From a virus, in the IMG/VR virus record IMGVR_UViG_3300045988_152944: a stretch of 64,000 bases of DNA; one strand, written 5' to 3'. A model generated the notes under the pieces. It saw nothing but the letters and a program-made list of their open reading frames with translations, had not been told where the DNA came from and made no database searches. The position numbers and the translations under genes were made by a program. Below, one piece after another: positions 2,461 through 32,743 of this stretch (position 1 is its first letter; each line of letters begins with the position of its first letter).

Positions 2461-2643
2461 TCAGTCTTTTAACTGAAAATATTTGCAATTTTCTTTGCAA
2501 CCATTTGGCACCCAGCATTTCTCATTGTGACAAAATCGCTGAAAAGGACAAACCTCTCCTTTGAGTTTTTCACACACATATGTGTCTGCGCCACACCCTC
2601 TTGCAAATTGGCAAGGATGCAAGGTCCTTTTTGGAAATTCCAT
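2461..2643 (-). CDS. 8-Cys mini-protein (60 aa)
   Basis: ORF track. Its start overlaps the upstream stop as TAATG. Cys spacing is C-x5-C-x6-C-x7-C-x5-C-x4-C-x5-C-x3-C. Confidence 0.55.
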   Translation of the reverse strand: MEFPKRTLHPCQFARGCGADTYVCEKLKGEVCPFQRFCHNEKCWVPNGCKENCKYFQLKD

Positions 2644-3680
2644 TACGCAATAGTGAAGGAATCCGTTTTGTTACCAAATGTAGCAGAAAGAACCTTACCT
2701 TGTTCAAGAGCAGTGGTTTCCTCTGCCACCGTATTATCATATTTGATTTCGAGGCCCTCTATGTCGTGTTTAAGCAACATCAGGCTCTTATCGTTATACA
2801 AGGCATAGATTTCAACATCCGAAACCTTATTGCCTACAACGGCGCTTTCGGGATTGATCGCGATAGCAACCAAGCCATCGGTAAGACTTCTACCTTCAAT
2901 AACTTCAATAATACGGAACAGTTTACCACTGCCAACATCACAACCCTCGTTCATAACCATGGCGGTACCATTGAGGTTCATAGTTGCATTCGAACTCATG
3001 TTGAAGGTGAATTCTTGACCACCATCAAGTTGGAATCTCGGAACCTCAAACGTAAGAGTGCCAGCTTTGCTACCCTTCGAGGCCGCACAAGCGTCACCGG
3101 CGAAAATAGGCACAGTGATAACCAACATAAGCTCTTGAGGGATAAGATCGCTCTTCACAACCGCTTCTTTAGCTTCGTTGCTAGAACCATAATAGCGCAC
3201 ACAATAGGTTTTACCTTCAACGCCATCCTCAATGGTCACGTCTTTACCAACAATTGCCGTGCTGACCTTGTAATCATCATTGCCTTCCAGTGCATACCAA
3301 ACCATTTTGGTTACAGCGCCGCTATCACATTTCAGCATGGGAATATCAGCAGGAGTTTGTTTGAGGGAAAGTTTGTTCCCATTGCACACAACCTCTTCAC
3401 CTTGATACGCGTTGAGACCACGCGCAAAAGTAGTGCCAAGCTGAGCTTCAATATAAGATTCTTTATAAAGAATATCCGTAAGGGTGATTGCTACAGCAGG
3501 ATCGTGGAAAAAGTTTGCAACAACAGGCGCATTCGTGCCACCACGAAGTTCGTCTTTCGTGATTGTGACAGAAATCGAAGAATCCGTCAACGTCTTGGCA
3601 ACAAACGCCATCGTCGGTTTCCCATCGACCAAACGAAACGCTTCAGCCGTACCAACGGAGCCTAAAAAATATTTTGCCAT
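2643..3680 (-). CDS. abundant structural protein, tail-tube-like with a possible C-terminal Ig-like segment
   Basis: ORF track; strong SD context shared with gene 9493..10053. The functional call is tentative and based on position and composition only. Confidence 0.4.
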   Translation of the reverse strand: MAKYFLGSVGTAEAFRLVDGKPTMAFVAKTLTDSSISVTITKDELRGGTNAPVVANFFHDPAVAITLTDILYKESYIEAQLGTTFARGLNAYQGEEVVCNGNKLSLKQTPADIPMLKCDSGAVTKMVWYALEGNDDYKVSTAIVGKDVTIEDGVEGKTYCVRYYGSSNEAKEAVVKSDLIPQELMLVITVPIFAGDACAASKGSKAGTLTFEVPRFQLDGGQEFTFNMSSNATMNLNGTAMVMNEGCDVGSGKLFRIIEVIEGRSLTDGLVAIAINPESAVVGNKVSDVEIYALYNDKSLMLLKHDIEGLEIKYDNTVAEETTALEQGKVLSATFGNKTDSFTIA

Positions 3681-19578: not shown

Positions 19579-19760
19579 TTTTGCTTCTAGATAGTTCATT
19601 GAACTTCTCACGACTAAAGTCGTGAGATTCTTGGGAACTTCCGACCACTGCCGGAATATTTACCAAGCTAACCCCGTCGTCCCAACGGTTGTTTATATTT
19701 AGGCTAATTGTTTAAGCCCTTCATTAAGAATATTTATCGCCGCATTAACATCTCTATCAT
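19579..19760 (-). ncRNA. candidate TnpB omega/reRNA (overlaps the tnpB 3' end, extends about 100 nt downstream; guide expected at the low-coordinate end)
   Basis: Canonical position for a TnpB guide RNA. Hairpin CTCACGAC-TAAA-GTCGTGAG at 19607..19626. GTTCAA at 19599..19604 resembles the IS605-family TCAA right-end motif. Ends are approximate. Confidence 0.5.
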
Positions 19761-20796
19761 GATGAGTGTGACAAACGGGGCAATCCCATTCTCTGACTTT
19801 TAGGTCTTTTGTCTCAGTGTTCTTATATCCACAAACGCTACAAGTCTGCGAACTCGGGAAGAATTTGTCAACTTTAATAACCATTCTTCCATACCAACGT
19901 GCTTTATACTCCAACTCTCTTACAAATTCTGACCAAGAAACATCATTGATTGCTTGCGCGAGTTTGTGATTTTTAACCATATTTTTTATTTGCAAATCTT
20001 CAAGACAAATCACATCATTTTCTCGAATGATAACTGTTGAGAGTTTTTGTAGAAAATCTTTACGTTGATTTGAAATTTTCTCATGCAATCTCGCGACTTT
20101 TATTCTTGCTTTGTTACGGTTAGAACCATCTTTTGATTTTCGAGATAATTCTTTTTGTAACTTTGCAAGTTTATTTAACGAGTTTTTGAGATATTTCGGA
20201 TTATTGACAACCTCACCATCGCTCGTGATACAAAACTCTTTAAGACCCAGGTCTATGCCGACCACATTGTTTGTAATCGGCAATGGTTGTATATCCACAT
20301 CCACACAGCACAACGAAACGTAGTATTTTCCGCTGGGCTCTTGTGAAACCGTCGCGTTTACTATTCTACCTTGTGGTACCAACTTGTTTTTCGTTTTTAC
20401 CAATCCAAGTTTTGGAAGTTGAATGTAACCGCCAAGATATTTTATGGTGCCATTCCTATATTTAGAGTTGTAAGAATATTTATGAGTTTTCTTACTTTTG
20501 AAATTTGGAAACCCAGCGTGTTCTTTAAAGAACTTTTTATAAGCATTGTCTAAATCTTTGAGAGAAGATTGAAGAGCAGTGGAATCAACTTCTGTAAGCC
20601 ATTCAAGTTCAGCTTTTAGTTTAGTCATCGCTTTCGAACATTGAACGTAAGTTATATTTTTCTTTTCGGTTTTATATAATTCAATCTTTTCAGCAAGATA
20701 CTTGTTATATACAAATCGGCAACAACCAAATGTTTTTGCAATTATTTCTTTCTGCTTTTCGTTTGGATATATACGATATTTATAAGATTTTTCCAC
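19699..20796 (-). CDS. tnpB: TnpB RNA-guided endonuclease (IS605 OrfB family)
   Basis: [16 protein letters not shown]-terminus; RuvC-I GIDLGLK; RuvC-II E in ICLEDL; zinc finger CSVCGY..CPVCH; Ruv[14 protein letters not shown]. The start is GTG with AAAGGAGG upstream. Confidence 0.9.
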
Positions 20797-21644: not shown

Positions 21645-22226
21645 TTAACTCCTTTTCGCCACCGGTGTACGCAGTACAGCTAAGAATTCTTGTAAGGAAT
21701 AATCAAGGGCGAACAGCTCATCTTCATTTTCTCGCACGAACACCGGAAGTTTAAAACATAAGATCGGATTTTTACTACCAACCACTCTAAATTCTAATTT
21801 AAGCTTCACGGCCTGATGCACCAATTCTAAAAACTTCTTATGATCCTTCATCCCCAACAATTGCATAATTTGTGGCTCGTCGTATTTGATCCACCCTGAG
21901 TCGTGCCAAGTTGTTTTAGCCACATATATTAACACCCCAAACAAGGCTCGAACTTCCTCATTGCTAATATTTAATAAAAAGTTCCATTCGTCCTCATAAA
22001 CCACGAAAGTTGTGAATGTATTTTTGGTATCAAGAGGGGCCTTTAATAAACAGTCCACAATTTGTTCAAAACATTGGTTATTTAATTCAAACCCGCGTTC
22101 ACACTCAAGGAGAAATTCTCGTATAGAGCCGTCGGTCATACCTTCGGCTCTTAACGAACTAATAATTTTTACAACGCTGCTGCCTTTCTCGATCAATTTG
22201 TTACAAATTTGTTCTTCAACTGTCAT
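21645..22226 (-). CDS. hypothetical protein
   Basis: Start moved to the ATG at 22226, after GGAGGAG. Overlaps the end of RNAP exon 2 by 11 nt. Confidence 0.5.
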   Translation of the reverse strand: MTVEEQICNKLIEKGSSVVKIISSLRAEGMTDGSIREFLLECERGFELNNQCFEQIVDCLLKAPLDTKNTFTTFVVYEDEWNFLLNISNEEVRALFGVLIYVAKTTWHDSGWIKYDEPQIMQLLGMKDHKKFLELVHQAVKLKLEFRVVGSKNPILCFKLPVFVRENEDELFALDYSLQEFLAVLRTPVAKRS

Positions 22227-23456
22227 AGTCACAATCTCCTCCAAATAAGTTATCAGCATCGAAGTCAAAATCTAAATCTTGCCCCAAAATTTCTTCCCAC
22301 GCCGCTTGATTCCAATCGTCATCATCACACAACTCGCTGACGCGATCTTCGTGAATCACTTGTAAAGTGTATCGATTACCAAGGTATTCAAATCCAACTT
22401 CGTTTTTCACGGGAATTTGAACAATTCCACGAGGGATTAAATCTAACACGCTTTCGTCTAAAATGTCCCAAGCAAAATCCCAATTAAACTGTTTGTATTC
22501 TTTTGATAAACAATGGCAGTAATAAAGCAATTCTTTGCCACTGAACGACGAAGACTCAATCGCCTCTTGAATTTCCGTTCTGATAAATGTCATTGCCCCG
22601 AATCTGATTTCATCATATTCGTCACGATTCGGTAAATCAATATTATCAACAATACTCTCCAAGGTTTTTACTTGTTTACGCGCTGTATATTTGCGATACA
22701 AATCTTTAACAATAGCAAACCGTTCTTGATCAAATTCAAAACAATCCTCAAAGGTGGGCAACATACTTACCGCGTTTTTATTGAAATTAATATCAAAATC
22801 GACATTTTCAAATTCCTTACACAACACATTCATTATGCACGGTGCGGTGATTAGTGGCGAATACTTTTGATAACGGCGTACCAAATTCATCTCGTCTTCT
22901 GATTTATTAGGTTTGGTTAAAAGTTTTTTAAATTTAACACCAAACATATTTTTGGACGCCATATTATAACTGTTTTCGTATTGTTTAAATTGTTGATTTA
23001 GTTCGGGATATAAATATCTAAAGAAATATGGTTTTTTAGAAATAACCATCGAGTTTCTTTTATATTTATCAGCCTTAACCGCATCAGTGTCATCATCATT
23101 AATTCGGATGAATTTCTTCCACTCTTTCGGCAACTCCGGCGCGGCTGTTCCTTTAATTCGATCAATTTCTTGACCAACAATTTCTCGAAGTAATTTAATA
23201 CGCAATGTAAGTTCGTCTCTTTGCTCTTTTTGGGTGTCTTTTTGGAAAATTCCCTTCATCGCGTGCATTATTGTTGCGCAGTTAGAAAAACCTCCAACCC
23301 CAGTTCCCAATCCGCGAATATCAGTCGCGATTGAATTCTTTAAACAAATCTTTTGAACCGGCACCGCACCTTTCTCATATGTGATGACATTGTGCCATTT
23401 TTGCGCACCCTTGATAAAGATTTTATTATCCGTGGACATTACTACATCTCCGTCAA
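22216..23456 (-). CDS. YonO/RdRP-like single-chain RNA polymerase, exon 2
   Basis: The frame is open upstream of the annotated Met and reads ..VDGDVVMSTDNK. Joining it to exon 1 gives an in-frame 960-aa protein with a DFDGD motif. Confidence 0.6.
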
Positions 23457-23770
23457 CCTTTACACCCTCGGTTTCCCGATATTTCTTAGGGGAGTAGATT
23501 ATCTCATCAACTCATTTCCTGTTACCGTAGTGAGCTGCTCAGCGCTTTGAATGTTGGAGTTTCACCAACACCCTACTCTACTTGCTTACTTTCAAACATA
23601 TTTCTTGTTTGATACGCGTTCGATAATCGTTACACTTTCCTTATTAAAGGCTTAGCACGGTGTTCCCTACGCAGGTTCACCGTTAGCAGGATTTCATCCC
23701 ACACCTTGGATTTCCAAGTTCACTGAGTTATCATTCGATTGTCACCAACCGACGGACCCTGTATACGTTA
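23457..23770 (-). other. group I intron (314 nt, no internal ORF), probably td-like subgroup IA
   Basis: The 5' exon ends in U, which can wobble-pair in GACU/GGUC. The last intron nucleotide is G. Paired elements include ACGGUG/CACCGU, CCUU-UAAU-AAGG, GUUGG-N7-CCAAC and UCGG-GAAA-CCGA. Splicing restores the reading frame and the catalytic motif. Confidence 0.7.
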
Positions 23771-25412
23771 AGTCACTATCGGAGTGTCGTAATGTTGAAG
23801 TATCATATATACTGTAAATGATTCCACTCTTAATATATTGATACCAATAGTCCATATCTTCGGACGATACTACTTTACAAGGGTTGTGTTCGTGCGAATC
23901 AATCATCGGGCTTCGGCACAGGTCAACACAACCCACACTTCGCTGCCTCCAGAAATTTGAATACACTTGGTCAGGCCCAATTAACCCCACCGGTTCCAAC
24001 CCAAGCGCCGATTGACACTGTGCCACGGGATCAGAAATCATAAAACTATAATTTCCTCTCACCCATATCTTACCAATCTTCGCCTTGTTTATCGTCTCAG
24101 CAATATTGCGATATATTTTCTTCTGTACATGAGCGTCTTCCAACATTATCGGGTTTTTAATAATAGCCCTCAACGCCGTGCTTTGCGCCCCATTATACAA
24201 TTCTTTAAAACTGACTTGTTCACCCTTGCAACCCAACATATACAACATTGTATACAATTGGTCACCTGAACAAATCTTTTTAATCCAATCAATTGTCGGT
24301 TGAATCAATTCCAGAATATCATCCTTATTGATATCCAACACTTGCAGATATTGATAATTGGCCAGCACATATTCGTCATCGTACTTTTTATTATATCTCG
24401 CAACTCCCCACTGAATACCAGCCGCATCTACATACTTTTGATATTCATACCAAGATACATAATATTTATACATCTTGAATTGAGATTCACTCAATATAAC
24501 GTCAATATCCTCCAACCTATGTGAAATTCCCCACCGGTCACGAATTGAATCAATACCGTGTTCAGCTCCAAACTCTCGAAAATCAAACGGGACCAAACAC
24601 CCCTTCACAAAAACGCTACGAACAACGAACGACGACGGCGTATACGATAAATTCATATCTTCTGCCCACAGTGCCGCAAACTTAGGATCGACCAATCCCT
24701 GTCCATCAGCGCAATTCAACTCGATGTCCATAGTTCTTTCTTTAATCTGCTTCTTCCCGGTCTCAGGATTAGGGCAAATCCAATCCACCTGTTGGTCCTT
24801 CACCACATTAAAGAAATCCTTAACAACACACACTCTCGGCGTCCTCACCCACATAACACTCGAAAACGCCAACGCAAAATACGCATGATATTTCGCCAAA
24901 TTCATTTCTGAAATCTTGGTGTCCAACCCGCACATCAGATTTTTATACAGGGTGTCATAAAGAGCTTCATTAATAAAGGTAATAGTGTTGCGCCTCATTT
25001 GTCCCGAACCACAACAAAACCTCACATAATGAATACCGTTAACGTCAAATCCGTTCTTGGCCAATTCTTTATATTCTTTTTTGGTCACGACTTCAACGTT
25101 AACAATATCTTTAACAAACAACGCATCTGTCAAAAACCGATTAAGAATACCAGCTTCTTTGGTTCGTCCTTCTCTCTTCGCAGCTCTGATAGCGCGACGA
25201 AATTGTTGGACATCGTTAAAAATCTCTCGATGACTTCTGGTATCATTATAATATTTTCTGATTTGTTGAAAAACCAGATTATCACCAATTGATACCAGTG
25301 CCCCATCGCGAGCTGCCTTAGATTTTGAATAATTAACTATATTTAAGTTGTTCTCTACAATAAAACTAGATTTAAGTTTAAAAACTTGATATAGGTTTTG
25401 TAAATTAGGCAC
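23771..25412 (-). CDS. YonO/RdRP-like single-chain RNA polymerase, exon 1
   Basis: GTG start after AAGAGGAAG. Ends ..CRSPMIDSHEHNPCKVV..TLRHSDSD plus the first nucleotide of the Phe codon. Confidence 0.6.
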
Positions 25413-25414
25413 TC

Positions 25415-25963
25415 TTAATCTTCCTCTTTTTCGCGTTTAATAATATCTAGCAAATCATTCACCGTTTGTGTCAAATCTAAATTTGTCAAAACGTATTTGT
25501 TTTTATATTCCTTCTCGAACTCACAAAACTGGGCGTCTTCCGCAGCCATTCTCTTGTGGACAATTTCAACATCATCGCCTCGTTTCATCAAGAATCCACG
25601 TTGTACATCCGCAGGTACAGAAATCAAAACAGCCACAATTTTTAATGGGTGTTTGTGGAAGTTCCAATACTTCCACAAATCCCCAAGTCCTTTAGGATCG
25701 ATTATATAAAAATCACTATTTAATACTTGCGTAACTGTAGCAAAATATTCCACATCTCCAATTACAGTCTGTGCAATAATATCATCTTTATATTTATCCA
25801 CATCCTCAGGTTGTACAAAAATGTGGGTGTCACCTTCATTAACTCTCTTGGGACGTGTGGTATAAGAACACACTTTCTTCATTCCTGTCAGTTGGCACAC
25901 ACGATCAACGACCGTATCTTTCCCGGCGCCACTTCTGCCAAGTACACAAAATAATGTTTTCAT
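25415..25963 (-). CDS. P-loop nucleoside-monophosphate kinase (guanylate-kinase-like)
   Basis: GRSGAGKDT P-loop and SYTTRPKRVNEGDTHIFV, a GK-type TTRxxR..G..F segment. Confidence 0.6.
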   Translation of the reverse strand: MKTLFCVLGRSGAGKDTVVDRVCQLTGMKKVCSYTTRPKRVNEGDTHIFVQPEDVDKYKDDIIAQTVIGDVEYFATVTQVLNSDFYIIDPKGLGDLWKYWNFHKHPLKIVAVLISVPADVQRGFLMKRGDDVEIVHKRMAAEDAQFCEFEKEYKNKYVLTNLDLTQTVNDLLDIIKREKEED

Positions 25964-32104: not shown

Positions 32105-32596
32105 ATGTCTATTAAAATCAATCAAATTGCAGCAACCGCCAACATCATCAACGCTCTCGATGCAATGAAAGCAGACGAGAACATCAGCCTCGGCATCGAA
32201 GAAATCGAGTTTCCTGATGGAAGCAAAGAGAAATTCTATTACAACGGCGAGTCCGACAAACAAGCAGCCGTGCACTTCGCACAGATTTGCATCGATGTTT
32301 GCGCCGGCGACAGCGACAAAGCCAAACGTATGATGGCTTCGTGTTTCAAACTTCTCACTAAAGGCTACAATGTCGACGAAATTGTCCCGTCTGCGGAAAG
32401 CGAAATCAACACCGAAACTTATATTGATTATAAGAAAGGTGTCTTGCTCACGCCGTACGCGTCGGTTGTCGCGTCTCTCACCGAGGATGAACTCAAAGCA
32501 ACAAAGGGCAAAAAGAATCCCCTTACCAAATCACTCTTGCTCGAAAGATCGAGAACTGATTGTTTAGAAGACGCTCTTAAATATTACGAGAGCTGA
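32105..32596 (+). CDS. hypothetical protein
   Basis: AAAGGAGG upstream. Confidence 0.6.
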   Translation: MSIKINQIAATANIINALDAMKADENISLGIEEIEFPDGSKEKFYYNGESDKQAAVHFAQICIDVCAGDSDKAKRMMASCFKLLTKGYNVDEIVPSAESEINTETYIDYKKGVLLTPYASVVASLTEDELKATKGKKNPLTKSLLLERSRTDCLEDALKYYES

Positions 32597-32743
32597 ACCC
32601 CGCAAGGCCCGCACGAAAGTGTGAACGGCGCAAGCCCGTTGCCCTCTTAGGAGGGTGGCGCTCATGGTGTTCATAATGGCATCATCTTCGTAAAATAAAA
32701 ATCTTGCTAATCGAAGACTAATGGCATAGAAAGGAGAATCATT

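Follow-up and report, generated by a model that had tools for sequence, protein, structure and literature searches.

Group I introns in conserved parts of essential phage genes are classical and include those of td, the nrd genes, DNA polymerase, terminase, and recA. Among the RNA polymerases (RNAPs) of phages, PhiPA3 carries a group I intron with the HNH endonuclease gp210 right after two conserved aspartates of a β subunit, where it takes part in inter-phage competition (PMC11620839), and in 201phi2-1 a mobile intron lies in the RNAP gene gp273/274 (PMC2919709). The phage enzyme YonO transcribes the late genes of SPbeta, and its 3D>3N mutant is inactive (PMC5467207). Here, we describe a gene of this YonO type on a 64-kb stretch of viral DNA (IMG/VR record IMGVR_UViG_3300045988_152944, hereafter the window). 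Two consecutive open reading frames (ORFs) on its minus strand are very probably the two exons of a YonO-type RNAP gene, interrupted within its DFDGD catalytic loop by an ORF-less group I intron that is, or recently was, mobile and is related to the subgroup IA introns of td and of the Herelleviridae.

The original prediction, made from the letters of the window, had placed these two ORFs on either side of a gap of about 300 nucleotides (nt). The ORF listing agrees and the gap holds an insert of 314 nt (Table 1). Joining nucleotide 23771 to nucleotide 23456 connects 1642 nt, ending in CGA CAC UCC GAU AGU GAC U, to 1241 nt that code for D549-G-D551 on to residue 960 and the stop. The resulting 2883 nt form a single open frame of 960 codons plus stop, whose product reads ..TLRHSDSDFDGDVVMSTDNK.., that is, ..YDTSTLRHSDSD-F-DGDVVMSTDNKIFIKG.. 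(RHSDSD-F-DGDVV). The joined product carries the catalytic loop D547-F-D549-G-D551, with the intron positioned one base into the Phe codon, and spliced RNA across 23771/23456 is predicted to read ..GAUAGUGACU-UUGACGGAGAU... Both the in-frame join and the restored loop, as first proposed, are confirmed by the join arithmetic and by an uninterrupted protein, P0001. This protein of 960 amino acids, retrieved with the spliced product, is 99% identical to it over 100% of its length and runs through ..RHSDSDFDGDVVMSTDNK.. without interruption. P0001 and the 85% identical P0002/P0012 read RHSDSDFDGDVVMST without a break, and about 24 protein clusters at 79-85% identity are likewise uninterrupted at the site.

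The same comparison at the DNA level, with alleles taken from IMG/VR loci, fixes the insertion point to the nucleotide. In the intron-less alleles (L009, L010, L011, L012, and L087, of which L009 and L010 are 100% identical to P0001), the site reads ..GAYAGYGAUU^UUGACGGCGACGU.. or, equivalently, ..GAYAGYGAUU^UUGACGGCGAC.., the caret marking the insertion point. In the intron-containing alleles, it reads ..GAUAGUGACU^insert^UUGACGGAGAYGU.., with inserts of 314 nt in the window, L013, L014, and L015, 313 nt in L017, and 1040 nt in L016. Thus, the intron-less target sequence is ..CATTCTGACAGTGATTTTGACGGCGACGTAG.. and the exon junction of the intron-containing allele is ..CACTCCGATAGTGACTTTGACGGAGATGTAG... 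Among close relatives, four IMG/VR loci and L087 lack the intron and at least six contain it. Since alleles of this gene that lack the intron run on without a break at the very nucleotide predicted, the insertion is not a matter of chance.

Two other 5′ splice sites were considered and rejected. GAC^GUU gives DVDGD with C at position -1, and GACUU^U would leave an intron ending in U; each breaks a group I rule or disagrees with the intron-less alleles. The only boundary that gives D-F-D as in these alleles (..GUAAAGG^UUGAC) has U at -1 and a terminal G, so that the U ending the 5′ exon and the G ending the intron, both anticipated from the sequence, hold at the boundary set by the alleles.

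Table 1. Features of the window. Intron position i corresponds to window coordinate 23771-i; E-values of R1 and R2 are approximate.
Feature	Coordinates	Strand	Description	Basis
ORF1	23742..25412	minus	556 amino acids, GTG start, ends ..TLRHSDSDLTYTGSVGW and stop	ORF listing
ORF2	22216..23439	minus	407 amino acids, starts MSTDNK	ORF listing
Proposed exon 1, YonO-like RNA polymerase gene	23771..25412	minus	codons 1-547 and first base (U) of Phe548	ORF list, join arithmetic, colinear with L009-L012 and L087
Group I intron	23457..23770	minus	314 nt, no ORF	absent in intron-less alleles; R1 and R2 matches; fold z -3.07
Proposed exon 2	22216..23456	minus	starts UU GAC GGA GAU GUA..; completes Phe548	uninterrupted P0001 identical here
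P1	23755..23774	minus	exon GACU (23774..23771) and U1 pair with guide GGGUC (intron 12-16)	read from sequence
P2 hairpin	23735..23752	minus	intron 19-24 (UCGGUU)/31-36 (AAUCGA)	minimum free energy and centroid folds
P3 5′ strand	23721..23727	minus	intron 44-50 (CUCAGUG), partner 227-233	alignment of 12 introns, fold
P3.1 and P3.2 hairpins (provisional names)	23686..23718	minus	intron 53-57/62-66, 69-75/79-85	covariation, R1, fold
P4-P6 domain	23634..23683	minus	P4 88-93/109-114, P5 96-98/104-106, P6 115-117/135-137, P6a 121-124/129-132	td-like segment
P7 5′ strand	23623..23628	minus	intron 143-148 (GAUUAU), preceded by J6/7 GUAAC	R2 alignment
P7.1 and P7.2	23551..23612	minus	intron 159-165/173-179, 200-206/214-220	fold, L017 comparison
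P3 3′ strand, then P8 directly	23508..23544	minus	intron 227-233; 234-240/257-263	covariation, R2, fold
J8/7 (AUGAG) and P7 3′ strand	23497..23507	minus	intron 269-274 (AUAAUC)	R2 alignment; within the stretch 86-93% identical to Herelleviridae introns
P9 region	23457..23492	minus	outer stem 279-281/304-306; hairpin UCGG-GAAA-CCGA 292-303 (292-295/300-303, GAAA loop)	covariation, R2, blastn to Herelleviridae introns
R1 match	23622..23729	minus	80.6 bits, E 1.7e-17, full length	sole match in 64-kb window
R2 match	23456..23633	minus	80.7 bits, E 1.1e-14	sole match in window
Guanylate-kinase-like ORF	25415..25963		upstream of polymerase gene	
IS605 OrfB/TnpB ORF	19699..20796	minus	365 amino acids, about 1.4 kb downstream of polymerase gene	Pfam HTH_OrfB_IS605, OrfB_IS605, Cas12f1-like TNB
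HEARO RNA (HNH endonuclease-associated, IscB omega-RNA type)	669-881	minus	full length, 133 bits, E 1.8e-27	RF02033
Twister-sister ribozyme	32595-32674	plus	full length, 64 bits, E 3e-12	RF02681

The insert is predicted to fold into a group I core from P1 to P9. At the 5′ splice site, P1 has the wobble pair U(-1)·G13; in L013-L015, G12 is replaced by A and the pair with U1 is kept, and every related polymerase intron examined is also preceded by U. In P2, the pair 23/32 is swapped from U-A to A-U in L016. The two hairpins that follow P3 are set in the conserved frame GUGAAC-hairpin-GGUGU-hairpin-GCUAAC (columns 10-53 of alignment A1, described below), and in the alignment G143-C274 takes the place of the first G-C pair of P7, which is conserved. 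Further downstream, P7.1/P7.2 form an insertion of the subgroup IA type between P7 and P3′, and the intron tail UGUAAAGG ends with the terminal G314 at window position 23457. Both the minimum free energy and the centroid folds calculated with ViennaRNA reproduce P2, P3, both extra hairpins, P4, P5, P6a, P7.1, P7.2, P8, and P9 (z = -3.07). All stems that had been picked out beforehand find their place in this structure: GACU/GGUC as P1, ACGGUG/CACCGU as P4, CCUU-UAAU-AAGG as P6a, GUUGG..CCAAC as P7.2, and UCGG-GAAA-CCGA as P9.

Covariation in unrelated members of the class supports these helices. Such members were gathered from IMG/VR with the signature GTGAAC..GGTGT..GCTAAC, and 35 of the first 120 signature loci also carry J6/7-P7 (AACGAYUA) and J8/7-P7′ (AGAUA(UA)RUC) in the right order. 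Twelve compact ORF-less introns from viral contigs, with the window's lineage left out, make up alignment A1, in which an unbiased scan for covarying column pairs recovers P3, P4, P6, P6a, P7, P8, and P9. Over 44 pairs in 10 helices, 90.8% of the cells are paired, whereas shuffles give 70.6% and slid partners no more than 42%; both sides change in 30 of the 44 pairs, and the covariation score is 0.562 versus 0.172. None of 500 shuffles reaches any of the observed covariation measures. P3 is paired in all 12 sequences at all seven positions, four of which change on both sides with 3-5 pair types, and P3, P4, P6, P6a, P8, and P9 each covary. P5, P7.1, and P7.2 are not consistently alignable across the 12 introns and are absent from the models built on them; they rest on the fold and on changes within the window's lineage. 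There, comparison of the window with L017 reveals 11 differing helix positions, and all 11 keep the pair (U-A to C-G in P3.1, P6a, and P7.2; C-G to U-A and A-U to G-C in P7.1). Since every one of these differences is a compensatory or wobble change, the RNA fold appears to be under selection.

From the same 12 sequences only, we built two covariance models, R1 for the 5′ domain (126 positions) and R2 for the 3′ domain (129 positions, starting at P7). Their matches in the window are colinear and between them take in everything in the insert from P3 up to its 3′ splice site (Table 1), and neither model matches the intron-less loci L009 and L011. R2, built without the window and without td, also matches the T4 td intron (L088 1303-1430, E 1.4e-4), which had been retrieved with a 153-nt query at 100% match to T4. 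R1 does not match td, nor was this expected, since neither of the two extra hairpins exists in td. The td core string quoted in the original prediction occurs letter for letter in T4 (L088 position 485) and can be aligned to P4-P5-P4′ of the window. Moreover, the last ~55 nt of the insert are 86-93% identical by blastn to stretches in 178 records of Staphylococcus, Listeria, Enterococcus, Bacillus, and Brochothrix phages, some of them inside split terminase genes. Two independent models, covariation, and the nucleotide-exact junction thus agree and, together with the td link, support the interpretation of the insert as a group I intron. As a side observation, Bacillus phage SBSphiJ4 (L002, OM982671, Bastillevirinae) has R1/R2 matches at 1598-1735 and 2449-2620 among unannotated "hypothetical protein" fragments; its 3′ domain scores 83.8 bits with R2, above the window, with a separate R1 match.

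With respect to subgroup, P7.1/P7.2 between P7 and P3′ are present both in the fold and in the window-versus-L017 changes, which keep their pairs. The short J3/4 that joins P3 to P4, about 3 nt in textbook group I introns, is absent, and two covarying hairpins take its place. The intron is thus IA-like in its 3′ half, yet a structural variant because of these hairpins, for which a name was sought in the literature and none was found. An alternative P3 suggested by the position of the td P3 strand, UCCUG (intron 80-84)/CAGGA (250-254), was rejected: L016 and L017 lack the complementarity, and the competing hairpin covaries.

The proposed splicing pathway would follow the group I scheme. The pre-mRNA would fold into the group I core, exogenous guanosine would attack after U(-1), the partner in the P1 U·G wobble, and the freed exon 1 would then attack after the terminal G314, joining ..GACU to UUGAC.. 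and restoring DFDGD. We infer that the window intron splices in this way.

Several points weigh against this interpretation. The two hairpins between P3 and P4 are foreign to the textbook group I core. P7 is invariant in the 12-sequence set and therefore uninformative there either way; its one support is a single C-G to U-A change, compensatory and confined to the window's lineage, where it reads GAUUA/UAAUC versus GACUA/UAGUC in every other family member. The E-values of our models are rough, as they come from a shortened calibration. Finally, the Rfam group I model RF00028, which had been put forward as a check, gives no match at its gathering threshold (50 bits), nor at E<=10 on 23350-23900. 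This null result is uninformative because RF00028 also misses related introns in L001 (a split terminase of a Silviavirus), L003 (Clostridium phage c-st), L004 (MT835481), and L005 (Enterocloster phage CB457P1), and in L002 it finds only one, unrelated, intron (882-1239). Rfam and GISSD models may indeed fail on phage introns (PMC11878797). The class with the extra hairpins has no RF00028 match in any copy tested (window, L004, and L005).

Rfam's blindness to the insert would also suit a decayed intron that no longer splices, with the polymerase gene a pseudogene. So would the lack of coding capacity: as initially noted, the window's copy encodes no homing endonuclease, its longest open stretch being 29 codons in any sense frame. 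Decay is nevertheless very unlikely. Both exons are undamaged along their 2883 nt, share 96% identity with the intron-less allele, and show no other lesions, and no fewer than five further contigs (L013, L014, L015, L017, and L208) carry this intron-containing allele. The helix differences from L017, all of them compensatory or wobble, and core elements that score full length against independent models also speak against decay.

The interrupted gene itself is assigned by several independent searches. Residues 107-575, on both sides of the junction, fit Pfam RdRP (PF05183; E 4.7e-11, 42.5 bits, cutoff 23.8), and phrog_8308 matches over the full length (E 7e-102). A tblastn comparison with SPbeta yonO gives 28% identity over residues 65-609 (E 4e-32), and the same search finds phage genes annotated as "RNA-dependent RNA polymerase" or "DNA-directed RNA polymerase"; a sequence search of the PDB with the protein gave no match. 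In an alignment of seven sequences (the spliced window product, YonO, BUCT082, Perkons, and the spliced products of c-st, MT835481, and L083), R500-x-P502, D547, D549, D551, D236-G237, R265, and K270-G271 are invariant, and R500, P502, D547, D549, D551, D236, R265, and K270 are also invariant in 42 closer homologues. The YonO triad reads QFDNDGDKAL. BUCT082 (L007, an uninterrupted gene of a Bacillus phage) has D-F-D-Y-D at the place of 547-551, a natural variant at a glycine that is otherwise invariant.

An AlphaFold2 model of the uninterrupted allele (predicted local distance difference test 84.9, predicted template modelling score 0.80) has its best Foldseek matches in maize and Arabidopsis RDR2 and in QDE-1 (E 1e-17 to 1e-12, template modelling score 0.4-0.46), followed by the RNAPs gp64 of phage P32 and gp66 of the crAss-like phage phi14:2. 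The structural comparison called for at the outset thus points to the same family as Pfam RdRP, the yonO alignment, and the invariant R-x-P and triad, in line with the initial idea of a YonO/RdRP-like polymerase split in DFDGD. The two ORFs probably belong, as exons, to a single gene that encodes a single-chain, two-barrel, DNA-dependent RNA polymerase of the YonO type. By analogy with YonO, this enzyme would transcribe late genes.

The catalytic loop also bears on whether the gene could be genuinely split, its separately translated halves assembling like the split β′ of some RNAPs. Such an arrangement would account for the ATG of ORF2 with GGAG 8 nt upstream and for the separate N-half and C-half families in PHROGs (phrog_25339 and phrog_35857). 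However, the break lies inside D-x-D-x-D. Without splicing, translation halts 10 codons into the intron, leaving ORF1 with D547 alone; D549 and D551 lie upstream of the first possible ORF2 start, and no ATG, GTG, or TTG in frame upstream of the ORF2 Met would include them. Owing to this early stop and the lack of a usable upstream start, neither unspliced fragment has the aspartate triad, which is complete only in the spliced product. Neither could bind the catalytic metal, and the equivalent loss in YonO 3D>3N is fatal to activity (PMC5467207). Moreover, the GGAG is merely part of the Gly-Asp codons, and the half-length PHROG families probably arise from further introns that have escaped recognition, c-st being an example. 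A split gene is therefore even less plausible than a decayed intron. Since the intron sits inside the codons of the metal-binding catalytic loop, an active enzyme would require RNA splicing.

Least credible of all is that the insert is other mobile DNA (an insertion sequence, a miniature inverted-repeat transposable element, or a group II intron) or an assembly artefact: a TnpB ORF and a HEARO RNA do occur in the window, but terminal inverted repeats and a target-site duplication were looked for at the insert and neither was found, its length and core fit group I and not group II, the covariance matches are strong, and the same insert occupies the same nucleotide in independent contigs.

The group I intron appears to be, or recently to have been, mobile by homing, as presence/absence polymorphism at one site and flanking co-conversion are both observed. 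L016 carries the same intron at the same nucleotide, 76% identical over the core, with a 246-amino-acid ORF inserted in the P4-P6 region. This ORF matches phrog_314 "homing endonuclease" (E 4.5e-17) and Pfam NUMOD3; its start (..FYVYEW..GEIFYVGKGSG..) is GIY-YIG-like by eye, with no Pfam GIY-YIG domain at E <= 0.01. The window's copy either has lost its endonuclease or never possessed one. The host gene of the window belongs to the L009 lineage (96% nucleotide identity) and that of L017 to the L011 lineage (90.7%). These lineages are about 75% identical to each other, and the two host genes 76%, whereas the introns of the window and L017 are 92% identical. In the exon 0-120 nt upstream of the intron, the window and L017 are 95-98% identical, and over the 60 nt closest to the intron the identity of L017 to its own lineage falls to 83%. 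Such an exon co-conversion tract is what homing would leave and points to recent intron movement.

Compared with L009, the window has six synonymous differences around the site (-13, -10, -7, -1, +8, and +11) in an otherwise identical neighbourhood. Gly-Asp is encoded by GGAGAU in intron-containing alleles (window 23440-23456, minus strand) and by GGCGAC in intron-less ones (L009 3143-3160). This recoding may simply stem from a co-converted donor or serve to protect the site against the endonuclease. It also creates the Shine-Dalgarno-like GGAG 8 nt ahead of the ORF2 ATG, which could permit translation of a C-terminal fragment from unspliced RNA.

The same loop is interrupted in lineages that are only 25-35% identical. 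The insertion lies at DxD^GD in c-st (L003, AP008983), where CST179/CST178 read ..NGMDMD^GDAVIS around an insert at ~3166-3471, in MT835481 (..SDADFD^GDISL; insert with an HNH_3 and NUMOD4 ORF), and in CB457P1 (..NGSDFD^GD..). The c-st insert, matched by R2 at 3346-3477 (E 1.4e-4), is unrecognised as an intron in the record, which annotates CST179 as "YonO homolog, N-ter only". The CB457P1 gene appears to hold two introns of the same class (~1748-2276 and ~2561-3072), both matched by R1 and R2, the second ~280 nt further into the gene than the one at DFD^GD. At D^xDGD, in phase 0, insertions are found in L166, a close homologue of the MT835481 gene, and in L083-L086 and L072 (~28-32% identical to the window protein, ..ILQFD^VDGDKS); L083 has an ORF that is GIY-YIG-like by eye. 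The window's lineage is interrupted one base further, in phase 1. At all these boundaries, position -1 is a U and the intron ends in G, and SPbeta yonO (L008), BUCT082, and Perkons are uninterrupted. Judged from these sequences, the metal-binding loop appears to be a recurrent target, with independent invasions at three neighbouring positions that involve no fewer than three combinations of intron and endonuclease. In c-st, CST177 ("C-ter only") overlaps the end of CST178; either an additional frameshift or a real gene boundary may lie behind this overlap.

One joint reading goes further and is offered as a rather doubtful possibility. The DxDGD codons could be a battleground of co-infecting phages, with interference competition as between PhiPA3 gp210 and PhiKZ, and the introns could form a distinct IA-like branch, marked by the two hairpins between P3 and P4, of which we found no description and which current Rfam models do not see. 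If so, endonuclease-bearing copies such as those of L016, L083, and MT835481 would cut the catalytic-loop codons of intron-less rivals, and ORF-less copies with recoded flanks, the window's among them, would give immunity, polymerase production then depending on splicing.

Irrespective of this suggestion, the proposed exon structure would turn two "hypothetical proteins" into one 960-amino-acid RNA polymerase. The same explanation would resolve the 2005 annotation of c-st CST179/CST178, which was never corrected; a jumbo-phage review cites c-st BAE47877.1 as YonO-like and leaves the interruption unmentioned (PMC7824862). YonO-like single-chain RNAPs would join the targets of phage group I introns. 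The original prediction knew of no described example, and this stands for YonO-type enzymes, as no paper linking them with introns was found in searchable full text; it does not extend to multisubunit RNAPs of jumbo phages, for which the cases cited above are known (PMC11620839, PMC2919709). The conceptual surprise is modest, because it is textbook knowledge that homing introns occupy the best-conserved codons of essential genes. Minor novelties are the DxDGD hotspot and the IA-like structural variant, and a widespread phage intron class that has no RF00028 match in any copy tested exposes a gap in current tools.

The polymerase gene lies within a minus-strand block, and the two ORFs downstream of it have no family match. 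Over the gene, blastn finds no DNA similarity to any cultured phage. IS605-type OrfB/OrfA genes also flank the YonO homologue of c-st. The ORF associated with the HEARO RNA may extend past the window start, and the twister-sister ribozyme is a second catalytic RNA in the window.

Taken together, the intron compares most closely with those of T4 td (subgroup IA2, carrying I-TevI) and the Herelleviridae (Twortvirinae and Bastillevirinae), with which it shares the helix order P1-P2-P3-P4-P5-P6-P7-P7.1-P7.2-P3′-P8-P7′-P9, J6/7-P7 (UAACGAYUA), J8/7-P7′ (AGAUA..RUCU), and the P9 GAAA hairpin. The P4/P5 segment of td is near-identical, and both introns break a conserved catalytic segment of an essential phage gene. 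In contrast to td, which has a 3-nt J3/4, the window intron has two extra hairpins; its J8/7 is 2 nt shorter, its third P7 pair is U-A instead of C-G, and it resides in another host gene without an endonuclease ORF. On the protein side, SPbeta YonO and the window protein are both phage-encoded and have R-x-P, D-x-D-G-D, and the conserved residues of the N-terminal barrel in common, while YonO, with 839 amino acids and an uninterrupted gene, is a distant relative of the 960-residue protein; the cultured phages related to the window's phage by protein similarity have Bacillus and clostridial hosts. QDE-1, RDR2, P32 gp64, and phi14:2 gp66 are the best fold matches (E 1e-17 to 6e-6) at a sequence identity of 9-14%, and we know of no group I intron interrupting this loop in any of them. 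As in the window, the introns of PhiPA3 and 201phi2-1 are mobile group I introns beside conserved catalytic aspartates of a two-barrel phage RNAP gene. Their host genes, however, encode multisubunit β-like subunits of jumbo Pseudomonas phages, whereas the window's gene encodes a single-chain, YonO/RdRP-like enzyme of a ~130-kb phage, and here the insertion lies inside the β′-type DxDGD metal loop itself.

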